Assembly: GCA_003243955.1 (NCBI GenBank) | Contig: QHCE01000009.1 | Location: 5,225 to 69,224, forward strand | Length of the DNA stretch: 64,000 nucleotides | Direction of reading: 5' to 3' | DNA from: Acidimicrobiales bacterium | GTDB taxonomy: Bacteria > Actinomycetota > Actinomycetes > Mycobacteriales > QHCE01 | In this document: one piece after another, positions 4,588-51,536 of the stretch | How positions within the stretch are numbered: the stretch's first letter is position 1 | Layout of the letters: every line of letters begins with the position of its first letter | Notes under the pieces: generated by a model | Told to the model about the DNA's origin: nothing | Database searches by the model: none | Seen by the model: only the letters and a program-made list of their open reading frames with translations | Program-made: the position numbers and the translations under genes

Positions 4588-5310
4588 CTACTCAGCGCTC
4601 AGTAGCTGCCATGCCTGTTGCGCAGCGTGCTGTTCGGCCGCTTTCTTGCTGTTTCCACGGCCACTGCCTACCCTGCGACCGGCCACTAACAGGATCGCCT
4701 CAAAGCGCTTGGCATGGTCAGGTCCGGATTCACTGATCTCATACACCGGAACGCCTAGCCCCTGCGCGGCGGCGAGCTCCTGCAGCGACGTTTTCCAATC
4801 CAGTCCCACGCCGAGCTGTGCAGCCTGTTCAATCACGGGATCGAACAACTGATGCACGACTCGTGAGGCGGCCTCTAGCCCCAACTGGATGTAGATCGCA
4901 CCAAGCAGCGCCTCGCAGGTGTCGGCAAGAATACTGGCCTTTTCCCGGCCGCCGGTAGCCTCCTCGCCTTTGCCGAGTAGCACGTGCACGCCTAAACCGT
5001 GCTCGCCCAGCCGGCGCGCAACATCGGCCAATGCCCGCATATTCACTACCGAAGAGCGCAGCTTCGCAAGCTGTCCCTCAGGGAGTTCGGGGTAGTTGCG
5101 GTATAGCGTCGAGGTAACGACTAACCCCAGGACGGAGTCGCCTAGGAACTCCAACCGCTCATTGGTGGGCAGGCCGCCGTGCTCGTAGGCGTAGGAGCGG
5201 TGCGTGAGGGTGAGCCGCAGAAAGGGTTCGTCCAACGTCACGCCAAGCACAGCGTTCAGTTCCCGAGCAGCCGCGCGGACATGTGCGTCCACAGAGCTAG
5301 CCGTACTCAT
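4588..5310 (-). CDS. rnc: Ribonuclease III
   Basis: It carries the RNase III signature [13 protein letters not shown] plus a C-terminal dsRNA-binding region ([19 protein letters not shown]...[15 protein letters not shown]). Confidence 0.92.
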
Positions 5311-5332
5311 GACGTTATGTAAAGACAGAAGT

Positions 5333-5444
5333 GTGCGTCAATCGGTCTCTGCCAAGGCCGCAGGAGCCGCCGCCTACGAAAATGGAGCGCAGCGGAATGG
5401 GTAGGCAAGGTGACGAGAACGCCGGCAGGGGCCGATTGACGCAC
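5333..5444 (+). repeat. Family-2 structured repeat, copy B (complete)
   Basis: It has 21-nt terminal arms GTGCGTCAATCGGTCTCTGCC / GGCAGGGGCCGATTGACGCAC, which pair at 19 Watson-Crick plus 2 G.U positions on the + strand. The core is CAAGGCCGCAGGAGCCGCCGCCTAC...GTAGGCAAGGTGACGAGAACGCCGGCAGG. It fills the rpmF-rnc spacer. Confidence 0.7.
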
Positions 5445-5447
5445 GCT

Positions 5448-5630
5448 CTACGCAACTTCGAGGATCTGGCGGCCCTTATACATGCCACAGGTCTCACACA
5501 TCACATGCGAAAGTTTTGGCGCCCCACACTGCGGGCATGCACTGTAGTTGACCGGTTTGATCTTGCTGATCCAGTTCGCACGCCTCGAGCGAGTGTTCGC
5601 GCGAGACATTCGGCGTTTGGGGACGGCCAC
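5448..5630 (-). CDS. rpmF: 50S ribosomal protein L32
   Basis: MAVPKRRMSRANTRSRRANW... with CPQCG...CETCG zinc-ribbon cysteines. Confidence 0.92.
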   Translation of the reverse strand: MAVPKRRMSRANTRSRRANWISKIKPVNYSACPQCGAPKLSHVMCETCGMYKGRQILEVA

Positions 5631-17004: not shown

Positions 17005-17310
17005 TTGCGTATACCGGGGGTGGCAAACAAGAGGGCAACGGTACGGAGTAGCTCAAAGCCCCGCAACCCCCTGTGGCGTGCCTCACGAAGACTGATCTCT
17101 GGTCAGAAAAACGAACAAAAAACCACAATTTGCCCAAATGCATGAAGACCTAATGCCGCAAATAGAACAATCTGCCCCAGGCACAGTGCTGTCGACCCTA
17201 CATCCCTGCCCGACTCCTTCAACCCAGACCCCAAGTCGTCAGGCGGGCACGGCCCTCTTTTCCCACAACTTCTACGAAGTTCCCCAGATATGTTTCTCGC
17301 TCTAACCATT

Positions 17311-17450
17311 ACCCCTGGAGTCGGAGCGGAGGCGCTGCGGGCGGGGATGAGATGCAAGGCGGAGAAGGAGACGCATGTGGGCTATGCGCGACGACGACGC
17401 CGCGGATCGCCGCGTCAACCACGCTATGCGTCTGCACAATCAGGGGCTGG
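17311..17450 (+). repeat. Family-1 repeat, diverged core-only copy
   Basis: GATGCAAGGCGGAGAAGGAG-ACGCATgtgggctATGC-GCGACGACGAC-GCCGCGGatcgCCGCG...CAGGGG is collinear with the family-1 core. The hairpins keep their position but have different sequence. No terminal closing arms were recognised. Confidence 0.45.
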
Positions 17451-18339
17451 TCAATACCCCGAGGATAATGCCGATAGCAAACAAGGCCAGCAGAGTCCCC
17501 ATCACTAGCAGTGCGACCCAGCCGCGCACACCCTGCGCCTCTGGCTGTGCGGGTGCCGAATGCCCTATAATAGCACGTTCATGTAAGCCAGTGGGCGACC
17601 ACCAACTTGGCTTAGTGGAGGCCGCGAGGCGCTTCGTCGGGGGCTGAGCGGGAGGAGAGGCATCTACGAGTCGGGCCGGTGCGGCATCTGGGGGGGTGCT
17701 GCTTAAGCTGTCACGGATAGCTTGGGCCAGTACATGACTAGAAGCGCTTAGCGCACTGTATTCAGTCGAGGGGGGCGGATCGTTATCGACACTCGAATTG
17801 TTATCTACTCCCGAGACTGCAACCGAACCAAAACCTAAGGCGGATACTTCATCGGGTAGCTCGGTGGGGGAAGACTCCATAGGCTGCGCCGGCAGCACTC
17901 CACCATCACGTTGGGCGTACAACTCTTTCTCCCGCTGCCGCAGCAAAGCGGCCTCATGGCCAAGCTGCAGCCACGGCCGCCCGGCTCGTACCGCTGCTAC
18001 CCCAGTTGCGGGAACGCCGAGCACGAATAGGGCGCCCAGCAGCAGACCGATGCCGCTTTCGCCTCGAACAAAACTCATCAGCGAGCCGACTGATAGGACA
18101 ATGAGCGCGAGTGCGGCAAAGGCGAGCTTGAAGAAAACTCCGACTGACAAGGCGGAGCGCATACGCTGTCGTAGTTTGCCCAGCCGCGTGCAGATCTGCT
18201 CTAGCTCTAGCTCTACGCCCTGCGCTTGGTTGGCGCGATGCCGCCCAGCCGATGGTGTGGACTCGTCGAAAGGATCGAAATCGGCATCGAATACCGATGC
18301 ATAATACGCCGATTTTCTGGTTTGAGTGTCGCTCCTCAC
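17440..18339 (-). CDS. Hypothetical membrane protein (299 aa)
   Basis: ORF-track ORF with TM segments (VGVFFKLAFAALALIVLSVGSL; WVALLVMGTLLALFAIGIILGVL) and a Pro/Ser-rich disordered middle. I recognise no family. Confidence 0.45.
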   Translation of the reverse strand: MRSDTQTRKSAYYASVFDADFDPFDESTPSAGRHRANQAQGVELELEQICTRLGKLRQRMRSALSVGVFFKLAFAALALIVLSVGSLMSFVRGESGIGLLLGALFVLGVPATGVAAVRAGRPWLQLGHEAALLRQREKELYAQRDGGVLPAQPMESSPTELPDEVSALGFGSVAVSGVDNNSSVDNDPPPSTEYSALSASSHVLAQAIRDSLSSTPPDAAPARLVDASPPAQPPTKRLAASTKPSWWSPTGLHERAIIGHSAPAQPEAQGVRGWVALLVMGTLLALFAIGIILGVLTSP

Positions 18340-24407: not shown

Positions 24408-24562
24408 ACGCCTAGTCTGTCACTTCACGCACCAGATCCCGCCAAGCCCTCTAGGGTAAGGAAAAGCGGAATTGAGCACAGCAGCACTGAATCGTGACCA
24501 CCTGTACGAGTTTGAACGATATACCGCGATTTGAGATACCAGAGGCAGACGGAGCGCCATTA

Positions 24563-24723
24563 AGAGGTCGCGCGGGTTGGTCGTTCGTTGCGAGGTGGTG
24601 CCTGGTCGAGGATGGCAAGGCGGAGGAGGAGTTCATGCTGGATGCATGGGCGACGACGACAACACAGCCAGGCGAAGTGCCAGGGGACACCGCAGTAGAA
24701 CAGCACCAATCCGCGCGACCTCT
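24563..24723 (+). repeat. Family-1 structured repeat, copy 1
   Basis: The closing helix AGAGGTCGCGCGGGTTGGT / ACCAATCCGCGCGACCTCT is 19 bp with one G.U. The core is GGCAAGGCGGAGGAGGAG, hairpin CATGC-tggat-GCATG, GGCGACGACGAC, ...GTGCCAGGGGACACCGCAGTAGAACAGC. It is near-identical to 41057-41232. Confidence 0.78.
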
Positions 24724-24745
24724 CAGCAAGAAAGGCGGCTTGCGC

Positions 24746-26374
24746 ATGGCCGTCAAAAAACTGAAGGCCGCCAGGGCCACAGTCTGCGGCAATAGTCATG
24801 GGCTCGTAGGCGCCGCAGTCGTGCTAAGCCTACTGGCCGTACTGTCCATGCTCACCGGTTGCGGTGCTGCTCATCGCGCATCTGCGACCAAAGATTTCGC
24901 CGCGATTACTGTTCCCACCGGAATCCCGACACCGGCGCAAGCAACGCTGCGCCATGGCAGCTATACCCAAACCCGGAGTGGACTGCACATACGCGTAGAA
25001 CTACTACATCGCATCGCCTTAGGTGACATCAGCGGCGCTGCCGCGCCAGACACGGCAGCGCTTGTGCAGACCAGCCTGAACTTGGATTCAGCCAGTGCAG
25101 CACTGCGTTTCCTCAGCGTCATTGTGCTGCGCAGCGCACCCCACAATCGGCCTCGCCAGTGGCAGAGTGCCCCTATCGTCAGTAACGCCCTCCCGCTCGG
25201 CGCGGGTGCGCGGTTAAAATCCATCGCGGTCAAACCGGCTGAGCTCCTGCACGGGCCTACACTGCGGGTGAGCTCAACCCAAATCATCGTTGGCTACGAG
25301 CTACCTGACAGCGAACACGTCGAGCAGATGCAACCCCGGCGGCTCACCGCAACACTGGTCGGAAACACGCTCGTTCCGCTAGAGGACGTGTCGACACACG
25401 AGCATTCCATGTATCGGGTAGCAGCACCTACCGTGCTGGCACTTAGCGCTTTAGGTGGAAAAGATCATCAACCCGATGGTGCCGGAGAAACACACGTGCA
25501 CGGTTTCGTGGCATACGGCGGAAACCAGCGCTACGCCATCTCGGTGCAGAAGGGATATCAGCTGCGGATCGACACCGCGGCGAGTTCGCCATCAAGCTCA
25601 CAGCAGCTACGGCTGAGTGTGAGTGGAGACGACGGCACTGTGCTGCAGAATGCTGGTAGAAGCGCATCGAACTACAGCAGCCCGGTGCCCAGCACCCAGA
25701 ACTATCAGCTCGAAGTCTTCAGCGCCACCGCCGATCCGGCCAGCTACATTCTCACCGTGAACGTGACCGCACCTTCCCCATCACCCTCGAGCGGGAAAAT
25801 TCTGCCCGAGCGTGCCACGAGCGGCAAAATACTACATCTGACATTTGACGACGGGCCTAATCCGCGTTTCACCGGTCAAATCCTCGACGTGCTCGCGAAG
25901 TACGGCGCAAAAGCAACGTTCTTCGTAGTGGGAAAGAACGTCGTAGAGCACCCGGAATGGATTGAGCGAGAGCTCCAATCCGGACATACCGTCGCCAACC
26001 ACAGTTATAGCCACCCTCGGTTGACGAATATCAGCCAACAGGCCTTCGATGCCGAAATTGACCAGACAGCGCAAGCCATCGGTCCGCATGGGGCCAAGTG
26101 TTTAAGGCCGCCCTATGGAGCCGTGGATGCACAAGTGCGGACCCGAGCTGCCGACAAGGGCTTAGCCGTGGTGCTCTGGGACGTAGACACCCAAGATTGG
26201 CGGCGGGGACCACCCGAGCAGATCGCGCAATCGGTGATCGACGGAGCCGAGACCGGCAACATCATTTTGATGCACGACGGCGGTGGTAACCGCGACAACA
26301 CCGTAAAAGCGCTCGACATAGCGCTAGCGAAGTTGTCCGCGCAAGGCTGGAGTTTCCAACCGATCTGTACATGA
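24746..26374 (+). CDS. Lipoprotein with C-terminal NodB-type polysaccharide deacetylase domain
   Basis: It has a signal peptide with lipobox (LSMLTGC) and NodB motifs LTFDDGP, HSYSHP and LMHDGG. The track ORF starts at 24494 only because the upstream repeat is open in frame. Confidence 0.8.
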   Translation: MAVKKLKAARATVCGNSHGLVGAAVVLSLLAVLSMLTGCGAAHRASATKDFAAITVPTGIPTPAQATLRHGSYTQTRSGLHIRVELLHRIALGDISGAAAPDTAALVQTSLNLDSASAALRFLSVIVLRSAPHNRPRQWQSAPIVSNALPLGAGARLKSIAVKPAELLHGPTLRVSSTQIIVGYELPDSEHVEQMQPRRLTATLVGNTLVPLEDVSTHEHSMYRVAAPTVLALSALGGKDHQPDGAGETHVHGFVAYGGNQRYAISVQKGYQLRIDTAASSPSSSQQLRLSVSGDDGTVLQNAGRSASNYSSPVPSTQNYQLEVFSATADPASYILTVNVTAPSPSPSSGKILPERATSGKILHLTFDDGPNPRFTGQILDVLAKYGAKATFFVVGKNVVEHPEWIERELQSGHTVANHSYSHPRLTNISQQAFDAEIDQTAQAIGPHGAKCLRPPYGAVDAQVRTRAADKGLAVVLWDVDTQDWRRGPPEQIAQSVIDGAETGNIILMHDGGGNRDNTVKALDIALAKLSAQGWSFQPICT

Positions 26375-34835: not shown

Positions 34836-36917
34836 ATGCAGGGGATGTTGCTCGAAAAGCGCTACCGAATTCGCGGCAAAATAGCCCAGGGCGGCATGGC
34901 CTCGGTGTATGAGGCCTTCGACGAACGACTTGAGCGCCTGGTCGCCGTAAAGATCATGCGTCCGGAGTACGCAACCGACGCAGTGTTCGCCAGCAGGTTC
35001 ATGCGTGAAGCCCGATCGACCGCGGCGCTCAATCACCCACACATCGTCGCAGTGTTCGATCAGGGTCACCACGACAACACCATGTTCCTGGTTATGGAGA
35101 AAGTAGATGGCACCACGTTGCGCGGGGTGCTGAAGCAGCGAGTGCGGCTGAACCTCGCCGAGGCGATCGGCGTAATAGAGCCTGTACTTGCGGCGCTAGC
35201 CCAAGCACACGAGCGGGGCATCGCGCACCGCGACGTGAAACCAGAAAATGTTCTGATCTCCTCGACTGGAATCGTGAAAGTCGCGGACTTCGGCCTTGCC
35301 CGCGCGGTAGAGAGCACTCATCAACTCACCAGCCGCAACACGCTGCTAGGAACCGTCGCCTACTTGGCTCCCGAGCAGATCACCAACGCTGAATCTGATG
35401 CCCGAAGCGACGTCTATGCCGTCGGAATTATGCTATATGAAATGCTCACCGGGGTTAAGCCGCATCAGGGAAGCTCGGCGATGCAGGTCGCTTACCAACA
35501 TGTGAACTCCGATGTGCCGCCACCATCAGACGTTGTGGCACAGCTTCCACCACAGTTCGACGAGCTTGTTGCCGCTGCCACTCGGCGCGACCGCACTCAG
35601 CGGCTGGCTTCCGCCGGGGTTTTCCTCACCGCGCTACGTCAAACTCGGCTTGCTCTAGGCATCACTCCATTGCTTGTTCGGGCCGCTGATGAAGTGAACG
35701 GCGCGACTGAAGCTACGCCACCAGACCCACGATCGCGGGAAAGTGCCTCCGGACTGCCTCCTGCCGCCTCAGGTCAGCAGGAGTCCGCAGAGCCGCAGGA
35801 GGAGCAATCTACTGCTCCACGAAACGATCCCGGCCAGAGCCGGAAAGCACCCAGTACGGGCACCTCAGTGATGCCGCCGCTGGGCCAGCAGCAACTAGGC
35901 GGCTCACTCACAGGAATGCATCGCGGAACCGCCGCCCCAGAGATTTATCAGCCGCCCGAGATGCCATCCGAGCCTCCGCCGCTGGCATCCTCGGCAGAGG
36001 GCGCGCGGCAGGAAAAAGATAAAAAACGCAGACTCCTCATGACCGCGTTGGCCGCGGCAGTGGTGCTGGTACTGCTAGCTGGGGGGTTGCTGTGGTGGTT
36101 AGGCGGGCGCAACGACGTTACCGTTCCCCAGTTCATCGGGTTGGATAAAACCGCGGCGGAAAGCGTTGCTAAAAAAGCGGACATCAAGGTTAGCTACGGC
36201 ACATCCAAATTTTCTGATTCGGTGAGTGAAAACGTCGTATTAGAGCAGAAGCCCGGTGCAAAACAACGCGTGGGTTCTGGCGACACCATCACGCTGGTGC
36301 TCTCGGGTGGGCCAAGGGTCCGCAGCGTACCTCAGGTGCGCGGCAAGACTCGCGACGAAGCTACAAAACTGCTGGAAGCCGAGCATTTCACGCCCGTTGT
36401 CAGCGAAGAAGAGAGCCAAGACATACCCAAAGACAGTGCAATCCACACAGATCCTGGCGAAGGTAGGAAACTTAACGTCGACTCGCAGATCCGGTTAGTA
36501 ATCAGCAAGGGGCGCGGATCTACCCAAGTTCCTGATGTGGTGGGTCTAAGTAGGGCTGACGCCGTAGCTTTGCTCGCCGAGCACGGACTTAAAGCTACGT
36601 TCACTGAAGAAACAACCGACAATGACCCGAATAGCAATGCCAGAATCGACAGTGTGCTCCGGCAACAGACGGCACCTAACTCCACAGTAGAAAAGGGCAG
36701 CGAAGTTGTGCTGGTGATCTCTGGTGGCCCCGCTCAGGTTCAAGTACCCAACGTCCGCGGCTTGGATTGCGCACAGGCACGTGAGCTTCTACGCGGCGCG
36801 GGATTGAAAGCCAACTGTCAAGGTGCAAGTAGGGGCAAAGTCTTTTTCCAGTCACCCAACGCTGGTAGTACAGCAGAGCGAAAAAGCTCCGTGGCACTGT
36901 TCACGTTTCCCATTTAA
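34836..36917 (+). CDS. Ser/Thr protein kinase with four C-terminal PASTA repeats (PknL/PknB-like)
   Basis: It has Hanks motifs GGMASVYEA, VAVKIM, HRDVKPENVL, DFGLA and APE, a TM segment (LLMTALAAAVVLVLLAGGLLWWL), then four PASTA-like units. I chose ATG 34836. Confidence 0.88.
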   Translation: MQGMLLEKRYRIRGKIAQGGMASVYEAFDERLERLVAVKIMRPEYATDAVFASRFMREARSTAALNHPHIVAVFDQGHHDNTMFLVMEKVDGTTLRGVLKQRVRLNLAEAIGVIEPVLAALAQAHERGIAHRDVKPENVLISSTGIVKVADFGLARAVESTHQLTSRNTLLGTVAYLAPEQITNAESDARSDVYAVGIMLYEMLTGVKPHQGSSAMQVAYQHVNSDVPPPSDVVAQLPPQFDELVAAATRRDRTQRLASAGVFLTALRQTRLALGITPLLVRAADEVNGATEATPPDPRSRESASGLPPAASGQQESAEPQEEQSTAPRNDPGQSRKAPSTGTSVMPPLGQQQLGGSLTGMHRGTAAPEIYQPPEMPSEPPPLASSAEGARQEKDKKRRLLMTALAAAVVLVLLAGGLLWWLGGRNDVTVPQFIGLDKTAAESVAKKADIKVSYGTSKFSDSVSENVVLEQKPGAKQRVGSGDTITLVLSGGPRVRSVPQVRGKTRDEATKLLEAEHFTPVVSEEESQDIPKDSAIHTDPGEGRKLNVDSQIRLVISKGRGSTQVPDVVGLSRADAVALLAEHGLKATFTEETTDNDPNSNARIDSVLRQQTAPNSTVEKGSEVVLVISGGPAQVQVPNVRGLDCAQARELLRGAGLKANCQGASRGKVFFQSPNAGSTAERKSSVALFTFPI

Positions 36918-37090
36918 GAGCGCTCGGTAATTGATGCTGTTCTACTGCGGTGTCCCCTGGCACTTGTGTCTCGGCTGTAGCCGAGGATATTGTCGTCGTC
37001 GCCCATACCTTCTCGGTATGAACTCCTCCTCCGCCTTGCCATACTCGACCAGGCACCACCTCGCTACGAACGATCAAATGCCGAACACTC
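36918..37090 (-). repeat. Family-1 structured repeat, copy 2 (inverted orientation, diverged)
   Basis: It is the reverse complement of the family-1 core, with rewritten but still pairing stems. It begins on the nucleotide after the kinase stop codon. Confidence 0.72.
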
Positions 37091-37154
37091 TAACCGGCCG
37101 CAATCGTGAGCTAAGCCACTTCCCGTTGCATAATTCTGATCTTAGGGTCACTTT

Positions 37155-37172
37155 AGTTAGGTAAACCTAACT
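37155..37172. promoter_or_regulatory. Palindromic operator candidate upstream of bfd-bfr (iron-regulator box-like)
   Basis: AGTTAGGTAAACCTAACT is a perfect 8+2+8 palindrome containing TTAGGT/ACCTAA half-sites like DtxR/IdeR boxes, but with different spacing. It ends 15 nt before GTG 37187. Confidence 0.4.
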
Positions 37173-37186
37173 CAGTCGGGTGGACC

Positions 37187-37387
37187 GTGTACATCTGTAT
37201 CTGCGCCCAAGTCCGCGAATGCGAACTCCGCGATGTCATCACCGCCGGTGCGCGCAACGTTGATGACATCGCGCAAGCCTGCGGCGCAGGAACCGGTTGC
37301 GGCTCCTGCACACGGCGAGTGCAAGCCGTGCTCGGCAAGTTAGCCCTACCTGAGCTCAAGAGCCTGTGCCCGGCAGAACTACGCTGA
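37187..37387 (+). CDS. bfd: Bacterioferritin-associated ferredoxin (BFD-like [2Fe-2S])
   Basis: MYICICAQV...CGAGTGCGSC cysteine pattern, directly upstream of bfr. Confidence 0.85.
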   Translation: MYICICAQVRECELRDVITAGARNVDDIAQACGAGTGCGSCTRRVQAVLGKLALPELKSLCPAELR

Positions 37388-37447
37388 ACCCACTATGCGG
37401 CTGCCGGTGCTCGCCGGTGCCGAGCACTAGTGATCAGGGACGGTGTC

Positions 37448-37927
37448 ATGCAGGGCGATCCAGGAGTCTTAGAATTTCTCAACGAACAACTCACCGCGGA
37501 GCTCACCGCGATCAATCAATACTTCTTACATGCAAAAATGCAAGAAAACTGGGGTCTGGGCAAACTTGCGGCGCACACCAAAGCTGAATCACTGGATGAA
37601 ATGCGGCATGCCGAGATCATTACCGACCGCATCCTCTTCCTCGACGGACTTCCGAACTATCAGCGGCTATTTGCTGTGCGGATCGGCGAAACAGTGGCTG
37701 AGCAGTTCAGCTGCGACATGCTGATCGAGCAGGAGGCCATCGACCGGCTGCGCCGAGCGATCGACCACTCCCGATCAGTAGGTGACGTAACCTCGGCGAA
37801 GTTGTTCGAAGACATCCTCGCCGACGAGGAGCATCACATCGATTACCTGGAAACTCAGCTGGAGCTGATCGCTAAGCTCGGCGAACAGCTGTACCTAAGC
37901 AGCTTAGTGGCGCATCCCACCGAGTAG
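37448..37927 (+). CDS. bfr: Bacterioferritin
   Basis: MQGDPGVLEFLNEQLTAELTAINQYFLHAKM...EMRHAEIITDRILFLDG...EEHHIDYLETQL. ATG 37448 lies inside the track ORF. Confidence 0.92.
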   Translation: MQGDPGVLEFLNEQLTAELTAINQYFLHAKMQENWGLGKLAAHTKAESLDEMRHAEIITDRILFLDGLPNYQRLFAVRIGETVAEQFSCDMLIEQEAIDRLRRAIDHSRSVGDVTSAKLFEDILADEEHHIDYLETQLELIAKLGEQLYLSSLVAHPTE

Positions 37928-40776: not shown

Positions 40777-40946
40777 CTAGTGTTGTGTAATCGATATCGT
40801 CGTGTGTGTGCTGGGGCTCAGGCGGCGCCTCGCGGCGTTGTCGAAATTTCGGAGGTAGGACACCGCTACCTGAAAATTCTCCGCCTTGCGATCCATCCAC
40901 CTGAACAACCAGCACCCAGAACGGAACATCGATTACACAACACTAG
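40777..40946. other. 170-nt long imperfect hairpin with perfect 19-bp termini (single copy). It could be a 6S-like ncRNA or a MITE-like palindrome.
   Basis: The termini are CTAGTGTTGTGTAATCGAT (40777-40795) / ATCGATTACACAACACTAG (40928-40946). The inner helices are GTGCTGG/CCAGCAC and TCAGG/CCTGA, and the apex is GGTAG-gacaccg-CTACC centred at 40862. Confidence 0.5.
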
Positions 40947-41056: not shown

Positions 41057-41232
41057 AGAGGTCGCGCGGGTTGGTCGTTCGTAGCGAGGGCGAAGTTGGC
41101 TAGCGCAGTCCTGGTCGAGGATGGCAAGGCGGAGGAGGAGTTCATGCTGGATGCATGGGCGACGACGACAACACAGCCAGGCGAAGTGCCAGGGGACACC
41201 GCAGTAGAACAGCACCAATCCGCGCGACCTCT
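41057..41232 (+). repeat. Family-1 structured repeat, copy 3
   Basis: It has the same termini and right half as copy 1. The left arm carries a different or inserted segment (GCGAGGGCGAAGTTGGCTAGCGCAGTCCTGG). Confidence 0.78.
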
Positions 41233-41314
41233 CAGCTAAGAGTGTCCAACCTAATTCATGCGGCGCGCATCTGTCGGATAGTGATTGCCGCCAACGGGTG
41301 CGAAAGGATCGGGT

Positions 41315-46910: not shown

Positions 46911-47006
46911 GGCTCTGCCAAGGCCGCAGGAGCCGCCGGCCTACGAAGAAAGTGGAGCAAGGCGGCTCAAAACATGTAGAACGACGGCAGGGACCGATTG
47001 GTGCGC
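46911..47006 (+). repeat. Family-2 structured repeat, copy C
   Basis: GGCTCTGCCAAGGCCGCAGGAGCCGCCGGCCTACGAAG...GGCGGCTC...GTAGAACGACGGCAGGGACCGATTGGTGCGC. It lies between convergent genes and ends 3 nt before the hemW stop. Confidence 0.6.
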
Positions 47007-50993: not shown

Positions 50994-51368
50994 ATGACAG
51001 CAAAACGGGAACAACCGCAGAAGGCGCAGATAACTTTTGGGAAGTTCGAGAACGTTGACCTGAGAGTGGCGCGTGTGACGTCAGCACCGCTAGCTGAGGG
51101 TACTCGGTTTCCTTGTCGAGTGATCACACTTGAGCTTGGCCATCTAGGGCAGCGTACCTCGGTCGGGCAGTACGCACTGCATACCGAAGCTGAACTTGTT
51201 GGCAAAAACGTTGTTGCCTGCATCAATCTGGGCCAACGAGAGATGGGTTCATACACATCTGAGGCTTTGGTATTGGGCGCCCCGCATCCCCAGAGCCCCG
51301 AGGACCAGTCCCAGGCCACCCCACTGTTCGTCTCGCCAGATGCTACTGCGGGCGACCAAGTCTTTTAA
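50994..51368 (+). CDS. tRNA-binding domain protein (CsaA-like)
   Basis: ITFGKFENVDLRVARVTSAPLAEGTRFPCRVITLELGHLGQRTSVGQ. I chose ATG 50994. Confidence 0.72.
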   Translation: MTAKREQPQKAQITFGKFENVDLRVARVTSAPLAEGTRFPCRVITLELGHLGQRTSVGQYALHTEAELVGKNVVACINLGQREMGSYTSEALVLGAPHPQSPEDQSQATPLFVSPDATAGDQVF

Positions 51369-51371
51369 CTC

Positions 51372-51476
51372 AGAGGGTGTGCCAAATAGACCCCTGCCGG
51401 CGTTCTCGTCGCCTTGTCTACCTTCGTAGGCGGCGGCTCCTGCGGCCTTGGCAGATGCCCTATTGGCGCACCCTCT
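51372..51476 (-). repeat. Family-2 structured repeat, copy D (inverted orientation)
   Basis: Its terminal arms are AGAGGGTGTGCCAAATAGACCCCTGCC / GGCAGATGCCCTATTGGCGCACCCTCT. The core is the reverse complement of copy B. It lies 60 nt downstream of the antitoxin-like gene, on that gene's strand. Confidence 0.7.
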
Positions 51477-51536
51477 GACCATCCCCTACGAGCACCCCTA
51501 GCGGGTCAAGGTATTGCCTGCAAGATTCTGGCGGGC

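Follow-up and report, generated by a model that had tools for sequence, protein, structure and literature searches.

Several families of small mobile palindromes have been described in bacteria. ERIC sequences are non-coding imperfect palindromes of ~127 bp that have terminal inverted repeats, are flanked by TA, lie between genes and are co-transcribed, and their RNA hairpin can affect mRNA stability (PMC3184786). [quoted passage not shown] The unit that replicates in REPINs is a long hairpin, its two sides undergo compensatory changes, and a single-stranded form has been proposed (PMC3116915). Here we consider a stretch of 64,000 nucleotides from an Acidimicrobiales bacterium (contig QHCE01000009.1; hereafter the window), in which a 174-nt structured element occupies positions 36917–37090, its sense strand being the minus strand, at the end of a PASTA Ser/Thr kinase gene to which it runs antisense. 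We conclude that it is very probably a copy of a transposable element of MITE type, small, non-coding and non-autonomous. The family to which it belongs is closest in behaviour to ERIC, Correia and RUP, TA-flanked MITEs found at gene ends and folding into RNA hairpins (PMC3184786), and closest in its hairpin logic to REPINs; by sequence it is a member of none of these. Correia and RUP elements duplicate TA, and RUP is mobilised by an IS630-type transposase; insertion in CTAG with duplication of TA is shown by IS630/Tc1-mariner elements and by some members of the IS5/IS427 group. An earlier note on this DNA, made from the letters alone, had described the element as copy 2 of a repeat whose secondary structure is kept through compensatory change, and had suggested that it could form the kinase gene's 3′ structure. 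The conserved structure is real, but it is a property of the mobile element rather than of the kinase.

Mobility was apparent from a comparison of filled and empty sites. Two public contigs show synteny with the window at 91–98% identity: L120, and L002, which comes from a metagenome-assembled genome (MAG) bearing the label Mycobacteriales. In L002, ~95% identical here, the same kinase end occurs without the element, the empty site reading ...CCCATT-TA-AGTGGTCGC... (a single TA, the site beginning CCCATT-TA-AGTGG), whereas the filled site in the window reads ...CCCATT-TA-(AGAGCGCTCGG...CCGAACACTC)-TA-ACCGGCCGC..., with the element, in parentheses, starting AGAGCGC. Since the TA is doubled in the filled site and single in the empty one, copy 2 is an insertion that duplicated TA. 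The two halves of the duplication lie at 36915–36916 on the kinase side and at 37091–37092 on the side of the bfd-like gene (...GAACACTC-TA-ACCGGCCGC in the window, against the single TA of L002). The kinase open reading frame (ORF) ends at 36917, and its stop codon TAA (36915–36917) is made up of TA and the first base of the element; the empty site likewise reads TAA, the kinase protein being unchanged because the element's terminal purine regenerated the stop codon. The element had been placed on the base after that codon: it does abut the stop, but begins at the stop's last base. The converse case is seen at aroG, where L002 and L120 carry, in the stop codon, an element with the same type of terminus as copy 2, whereas in the window this site is empty and reads GGGGC-TAG-CAGAGG; when filled it reads GGGGC-TG/AGAGCGC (the slash marking the end of the element), which yields the stop codon TGA. 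Copies 3 and 5 of the window, described below, are missing at the corresponding L120 sites, where the fast-evolving flanks align only approximately.

Copy 2 has many relatives. A scan of genomes (one per species) for the core common to copies 1–4, AAGGCGGAGNAGGAG-N10-30-GCGACGACG, gave at least 118 loci, nearly all from Actinomycetota and often several per genome, with hosts including Kribbella, Microbispora, Streptosporangium, Nocardia, Rhodococcus, Streptomyces, Jiangella, Pseudonocardia and many MAGs. Two of the matches (L036 and L117) were false positives within coding sequence, and the hosts outside Actinomycetota (Gemmatimonadota, ‘Melainabacteria’ and Byssovorax MAGs) may be binning errors. 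A second anchor, the arm motif CCGTCGCGAGCGG...GCGCAGCAGG, was used to scan metagenomes and gave at least 120 loci and 116 distinct members. Genomes and metagenomes together yielded >200 relatives, and both copy numbers and host range of the family are lower bounds. No match was found in viral contigs, and plasmids gave a single partial copy, on a RefSeq Streptomyces plasmid where it is unannotated. Members were 155–175 nt long, and 88 of the sequences were aligned with MAFFT (alignment A2), giving the consensus Y-TA / GGGCGTGTCCCGTAGATC.. CGTCGCGAGCGG .. TCCAGGCGGCG. CCGGC AAGGCGGAGGAGGAG (7–8-bp variable hairpin) GCGACGACGACAACGCCGCCGG .. GCGCAGCAGG .. GACACGCCC / TA-R. The ends were fixed by comparison of copies within genomes and by filled and empty sites, as minimum-free-energy folding and extension of the alignment both overran into G+C-rich flanks. 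Copies from the same genome end sharply, (C)TA/G...C/TA(G), and the terminal inverted repeats form an outer helix of ~20 bp that reaches to the very ends (consensus GGGCGTGTC...GACACGCCC).

In A2, TA was present on the 5′ side of 54/88 sequences, on the 3′ side of 59/88 and on both sides of 38/88. The base preceding the 5′ TA was C or T in 52/54, the base following the 3′ TA was G or A in 52/59, and the first base of the element was G in 51/54. TA followed by G or A is therefore a stop codon, on either strand, and at least 35/79 copies abutted the stop codon of an ORF that was long and whose G+C by codon position looked coding, compared with a background of 23–26% of all YTAR/CTAG sites in the same DNA. 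TA is rare in G+C-rich genomes and is concentrated in stop codons and spacers, and insertions into stop codons are tolerated because the stop is rebuilt. The element is not gene-specific: relative to the upstream gene, 55 copies had the same and 49 the opposite orientation, copies in stop codons were sense (16) or antisense (22) to the gene concerned, and no protein family recurred among 969 flanking ORFs, unlike what a gene-specific cis-regulatory RNA (riboswitch or leader) would show. No reading frame or start codon was conserved across the family. In its size (below ~300 bp), non-coding nature, terminal inverted repeats, target-site duplication and dispersed copies with insertion polymorphism, the family corresponds to a MITE, and its TA duplication and CTAG-like target preference correspond to IS630/Tc1-mariner-type elements, to which these features are not exclusive.

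Every family member folds into one imperfect hairpin rod of ~160 nt, and it is because each folds as one long strand-specific hairpin that paired bases change together. A rod of 65 pairs was derived from individual folds and then counted on A2: 83.7% of cells were paired, against 36–45% when 3′ partners were slid by 1–3 columns, and 54/65 pairs had changed on both sides, figures to be read with the caveats that the sequences are related and cells not independent, that MAFFT is not structure-aware, and that the structure was derived from the same sequences. The covariation score of 0.466 compared with 0.18 in shuffles, 0/500 of which reached 0.466. RNAalifold applied to A2 recovered the outer helix, the helix adjacent to the core and the terminal hairpin, with 23/28 pairs changed on both sides. 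The terminal hairpin was 96% paired among the 88 relatives, with 7/11 pairs doubly changed, and at A2 columns 108/170, for example, 44 sequences had GC and 37 had CG. Across the family, pairing is maintained in the helices, terminal inverted repeats among them, while their sequence drifts or is swapped, and a few asymmetric internal loops, GCAAGGCG...CAACGCNGC and CGUCGCGAGCGG/GCGCAGCAGG, keep their sequence family-wide.

The same architecture was found in copy 2 (all parts read on the minus strand), which matched a covariance model built from A2 with 66 bits (E = 4e-14, search of the 64-kb window, E-values of this model being rough) and folded as RNA to −73.4 kcal/mol (z = −4.8; 0/200 shuffles were equally stable). 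Its termini are GAGTGTTCGG...CCGAGCGCTCT. The closing helix, which is also the terminal inverted repeat, has its 5′ arm GAGTGTTCGGCATTTGATC at 37072–37090 and its 3′ arm, ending ...GATCAATTACCGAGCGCTCT, at 36917–36935; the conserved core has its 5′ strand GCAAGGCGGAGGAGGAG at 37023–37039 (exact in copies 1, 2 and 3, with 1 mismatch in copy 4) and its 3′ strand GCGACGACGACAAU at 36989–37002, and in individual folds the two strands together form G-C pairs split by tandem G.A/A.G mismatches. Between them lies the terminal hairpin CAUACC-GAGAA-GGUAUG (37004–37020), variable in sequence and conserved in pairing.

The earlier proposal of compensatory change rested on three examples from the window's own copies, and once relatives were added it gained strong support, with two of the three being genuine helices. 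The hairpin said to be rewritten, CATGC-tggat-GCATG at 24634–24648 in copy 1 and CATACC-(ttctc/gagaa)-GGTATG at 37004–37020, is present in both forms and is the family's terminal hairpin. The closing helix is likewise rewritten and still pairs: its arms GAGTGTTCGGCATTTGATC / GATCAATTACCGAGCGCTC match at 17/19 positions (15 Watson-Crick and 2 G-U, counted from sequence), with ~9/19 bases differing from copy 1 on each arm. Per-pair counts between copies 1 and 2 were not used, the register slipping by one base at the termini in both family and pairwise alignments. The third example, a small stem, does exist as CTCGGC-tgta-GCCGAG at 36970–36985, a palindrome (CTCGGC-NNNN-GCCGAG) without strand, but it arose from a 10–12-nt insertion specific to copy 2 and is no compensatory change. 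Its supposed counterpart in copy 1, GCC-a-GGC, cannot be a stem because a loop of 1 nt is impossible; in all folds that GCC is the 3′ partner of the GGC preceding AAGGCGG, and the palindrome cited from the 17.4-kb copy aligns with the 3′ strands of two different family helices. Copy 2 is a recent insertion from a sub-lineage whose termini and terminal hairpin are unlike those of copies 1 and 3, and it is this difference that had been read as compensatory change.

Extra hairpins of ~50 nt were also seen just 3′ of GCGACGACGA in L018, L033, L065 and L101 (also in L017 and L046), the same position as the small insertion of copy 2, which suggests a single permissive site in the rod. A group of metagenome members (among them L134, L145 and L160) shared the arm motif CCGTCGCGAGCGG...GCGCAGCAGG around a different centre, CAGCA..GAGAAGCGCAGC-hairpin-AGCGAGCATCGCAGG..TGCAAC, suggesting that modules are exchanged between related hairpin families.

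The metagenome sample was not selected on the core, as the genome scan had been. An invariant (GGA)3/(GAC)3 core was rejected as partly an ascertainment bias: only 29/116 metagenome members match the full search pattern and 36/116 contain GGAGGAGGAG. By comparison S-AAGG-Y was found in 90/116, both S-AAGG-Y (5′) and S-AAC-R-C (3′) in 83/116, and at least one of the two in 99/116. The minimal signature is GC-AA-GGCG ... AA-CGCN-GC, in which G-C pairs form a 4-bp helix and AA stands 5′ of either strand. Folds indicate that in the lineage of the window this signature is extended by G-C pairs alternating with tandem G.A/A.G. Termini in the metagenome sample varied widely, yet remained TA-flanked inverted repeats.

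The element inserted into the TA of the PASTA Ser/Thr kinase stop codon, duplicating the TA, and its own terminal purine rebuilt the stop codon. Beyond this, a mechanism may be proposed: the mobilising enzyme, acting in trans, would be a TA-duplicating DDE transposase of IS630/Tc1-mariner or IS5/IS427 type. The folded single strand, whether a transcript or a single-stranded DNA form, would matter for the element's spread or retention, which we infer because pairing is maintained on one strand only. The kinase mRNA would carry the weaker antisense hairpin of the element, which would fall in its 3′ untranslated region given transcriptional read-through, and any effect on that mRNA would be a by-product of the insertion.

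Several points weigh against a simple non-autonomous element of this kind. The ~1.5 Mb of retrieved loci, searched for matching termini 600–2500 bp apart and for split core halves, held no autonomous partner sharing the element's ends, so that the transposase family named above is putative. Copies 1 (24724–24725) and 3 (41233–41234) and the aroG copy carry CA, followed by GC, rather than TA after the 3′ end, which at aroG makes the rebuilt stop TGA, and which arose possibly, in copies 1 and 3, through a transition under G+C pressure or through copying that included the flanks, and the empty sites of copies 3 and 5 are approximate alignments only. Shared ancestry inflates the covariation counts, and covariation in the outermost helix could reflect co-change of two transposase-binding ends instead of pairing; the inner helices, outside the transposon termini, covary as well. 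Moreover, an element moved by double-stranded cut-and-paste should be strand-symmetric. The sense strand (that bearing AAGGCGG) was more stable than its complement in 88/88 members, by a mean difference of −24 kcal/mol, and in 79/81 rod-folding members of the metagenome sample, including 46/48 of those without the (GGA)3 core. At the consensus pairs G.U occurred 521 times and A.C 129 times, G.U exceeding A.C at 47 pair positions and the reverse holding at 8, terminal repeats included, and purine-purine outnumbered pyrimidine-pyrimidine mismatches by 517 to 269. Since copies are oriented at random to their neighbours, transcription of host genes cannot be the source of the strand bias, which therefore should reflect the element's own cycle, through a transcript or a single-stranded DNA intermediate.

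The search for a partner also turned up a 1.56-kb element in L017 (5955–7517) with perfect terminal repeats CTACAGTCCGGGTTTGTGA and TA flanks; it is probably an insertion sequence, and its termini are unrelated to those of the hairpin family.

Strand bias and conserved loops allow a broader interpretation, which we put forward tentatively as a possibility: a phylum-wide superfamily of mobile hairpins in which the unit of selection is the folded single strand (a transcript or a single-stranded DNA intermediate), and in which the protein that copies, moves or protects the element recognises the conserved loops GC-AA-GGCG...AA-CGCN-GC, with their tandem G.A pairs, and CGUCGCGAGCGG/GCGCAGCAGG. If this were true, propagation would differ from that of double-stranded cut-and-paste MITEs in combining TA duplication with structure- and strand-specific recognition.

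Other origins for the structure were weighed against the same evidence. One reading takes it for a 3′ structure that evolved for the kinase gene itself, either as a terminator or as a hairpin that stabilises the mRNA; in its favour, the element begins at the stop codon and the kinase-mRNA strand still folds (−57 kcal/mol, z = −3.25). It is nevertheless very unlikely: the same kinase end exists in L002 without the element, the better-folding strand is antisense to the kinase, further copies lie in this window, and the same element lies beside unrelated genes in both orientations. Nor does copy 2 look like a terminator, as its antisense strand has no U-tract, no T-run characteristic of an intrinsic (Rho-independent) terminator follows the hairpin, and no terminator-like site was called at copy 2 on either strand. 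Less likely still, with next to no chance of being right, is a small protein. Copies 1 and 3 share GGAGGAG-N5-ATG, a strong ribosome-binding sequence ahead of a 31-codon frame, but, as had already been noticed, copy 2 has ATA in place of the ATG, and the lack of conservation extends to the family: an ATG is missing at this position from most relatives, and their hairpins vary in length by indels that three does not divide, which makes the frame non-coding.

Readings that keep the fold at the centre fare somewhat better, without being probable. The elements might be single-stranded DNA hairpins moved by a tyrosine (HUH) transposase, as are REPINs with their RAYTs or derivatives of IS200/IS605, inserting 3′ of a TA and bringing a terminal TA of their own; the flanking TAs fit this equally as well as a true duplication. 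Strand-specific pairing with an excess of G.U, and asymmetric loops that are candidate sites for protein recognition on a folded strand, would be in keeping with such a cycle, and REPIN long hairpins show compensatory changes too (PMC3116915). On the other side, the target context Y-TA-R has the symmetry expected if the target is double-stranded, the element ends in genuine terminal inverted repeats and not in two self-folding subterminal hairpins, nothing resembling a RAYT recurs among the 969 flanking ORFs, and copy 2 folds weakly with DNA parameters (sense −29.8 kcal/mol, z = −2.4; antisense z = −0.09), so that this origin is unlikely; the modest DNA folding would itself lean slightly towards an RNA over a DNA form, without being decisive. 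Equally unlikely, in our estimation, is that the copies are mobile genes whose product is a structured non-coding RNA serving the cell or the element (by protein binding, for example, or as a processing substrate), with the loops as the functional sites. Covarying helices with conserved internal loops, a sense strand that is always the more stable, extra hairpins confined to one permissive position and a decayed copy 4 that retains the core would all suit an RNA gene, but no sigma-70-like promoter and no terminator-like signal was found at copy 2, orientation to host transcription is random, and Rfam holds no relative. It is more doubtful again that pairing was kept without selection, one arm being copied onto the other by intra-strand template switching or gene conversion, and the termini co-varying solely through the need of both to match one transposase. 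In its favour, the whole element is a near-palindrome, and copy 2 differs from copy 1 by block replacement of both termini around an interior that is 86–95% identical; however, the mechanism is strand-symmetric and predicts neither the 4:1 excess of G.U over A.C, nor the excess of purine-purine mismatches, nor the conserved asymmetric loops.

If the family is taken, as we prefer, to consist of MITEs, its place among described elements can be defined more closely. ERIC is alike in being a small, TA-flanked, non-coding palindrome with terminal inverted repeats and an RNA hairpin fold, but there is no relation in sequence, and ERIC occurs in Gammaproteobacteria whereas the hairpin family occurs in Actinomycetota; the invariant asymmetric loops, the 88/88 strand bias and the frequent position in stop codons, seen in the hairpin family, are not known from ERIC. 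Correia and RUP are single-genus families with conserved termini, whereas in the hairpin family termini vary by sub-lineage and it is the internal loops that many genera have in common. A REPIN is built from two REP sequences in inverted orientation and has a linked RAYT gene, in contrast to the true terminal repeats, TA duplication and lack of a recurrent neighbour seen here, and on inspection of the alignment the arms of the hairpin family were not self-palindromic REP units. Plant Stowaway/Tourist MITEs, although from a different domain of life, are also TA-flanked, and their transcripts form long microRNA-like hairpins. At Rfam 15 gathering thresholds no match was found in the whole window, and at E up to 10 copy 2 and a typical member gave matches at chance level only. 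The best near-match of the typical member (L026 3689–3875) was a plant microRNA precursor, MIR1437, which we take to be MITE-derived; it scored 40.9 bits where the gathering score is 168, well short of the threshold, and the resemblance is in shape only.

No actinobacterial MITE is listed in the review by Delihas (2011), in a review from 2024 or in a census of prokaryotic MITEs from the same year, none of which mentions an actinobacterial family of this kind, and searches of the indexed literature for the core strings and for MITE/REP in actinobacteria returned nothing relevant. The family is apparently undescribed, and apparently a new family of a known kind. It goes beyond the usual description of a MITE in two respects: its internal asymmetric loops are better conserved than its termini, and its strand specificity is strict. 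With its strand-specific rod and invariant loops, the family allows a test of whether recognition of a single strand plays a part in how a MITE lives. Targeting the rare TA of stop codons, and rebuilding the stop with its own first base, is a simple way for a mobile element to persist where genes are dense and G+C is high. Actinomycetes, antibiotic-producing genera among them, carry the family in abundance, although it is, as far as could be found, unannotated in RefSeq records and absent from Rfam, and its strong covariation means that it can pass for riboswitch-like RNA. For the present genome, the set of repeats is explained as recent insertions and not as gene-specific regulators.

The covariance model detected five family copies in the window, together with two of a sister family. 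The clear repeats, copies 1, 2 and 3, are each ~165 nt long, with copy 2 in the opposite orientation to the other two. Copy 1 (24563–24723, plus strand; 111 bits) folds to −86.2 kcal/mol (z = −6.0) and lies in the 5′ region of a polysaccharide deacetylase gene (Pfam). Its GGAGGAG-N5-ATG, with the ATG at 24635, shares the reading frame of the polysaccharide deacetylase ORF downstream (24494–26374, likely start 24746; region 24622–24750), so that the insertion could, from its sequence, yield an N-terminally extended isoform of the enzyme; the same frame in copy 3 ends after 31 codons. Copy 3 (41057–41232, plus strand; −83.9 kcal/mol, z = −4.4) is 100% identical to copy 1 over 127 nt apart from a replacement of ~15 nt at 41079–41098, where GCGAAGTTGGCTAGCGCAGT stands in place of the TGGTG of copy 1 and disrupts one middle helix. 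Copy 4 (17304–17456, plus strand; 45.6 bits) is degenerate, with the core kept and the arms mostly decayed. Copy 5 (40780–40943, minus strand; 74.7 bits, E = 3e-16), overlooked when the repeats were first listed, has CTAG flanks, with TA at 40778–40779 and 40944–40945, and lies 100 nt from copy 3, head-to-head, in the divergent spacer between pfk and a gene for 370 amino acids. Its core is a variant in which GCAAGGCGGAG...CGACAACGCCGC is kept and the GGA/GAC repeats are swapped for an AAAUUU/AAAUUU helix.

Members of the shorter sister family, with the core AAGGCCGCAGGAG...GACGAGAACGCC, were detected at 5293–5479 (plus strand; 32.5 bits, E = 9e-6) and 51337–51508 (minus strand; 25.1 bits, E = 6e-4), with fragments at 2253–2289 and 46918–46947. 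The ends of this family read CA/GAGGGTG...CACCCTC/TG, looking like decayed TA, and its variant core occurs in the metagenome sample too. Downstream of the kinase and copy 2, a near-perfect palindrome, TTAGTTAGGTAAACCTAAC (37153–37171), stands just upstream of the bfd-like ferredoxin gene (37187–37387), which is followed by a gene for bacterioferritin (37430–37927); by its resemblance to the consensus, the palindrome is a candidate IdeR/DtxR iron box.

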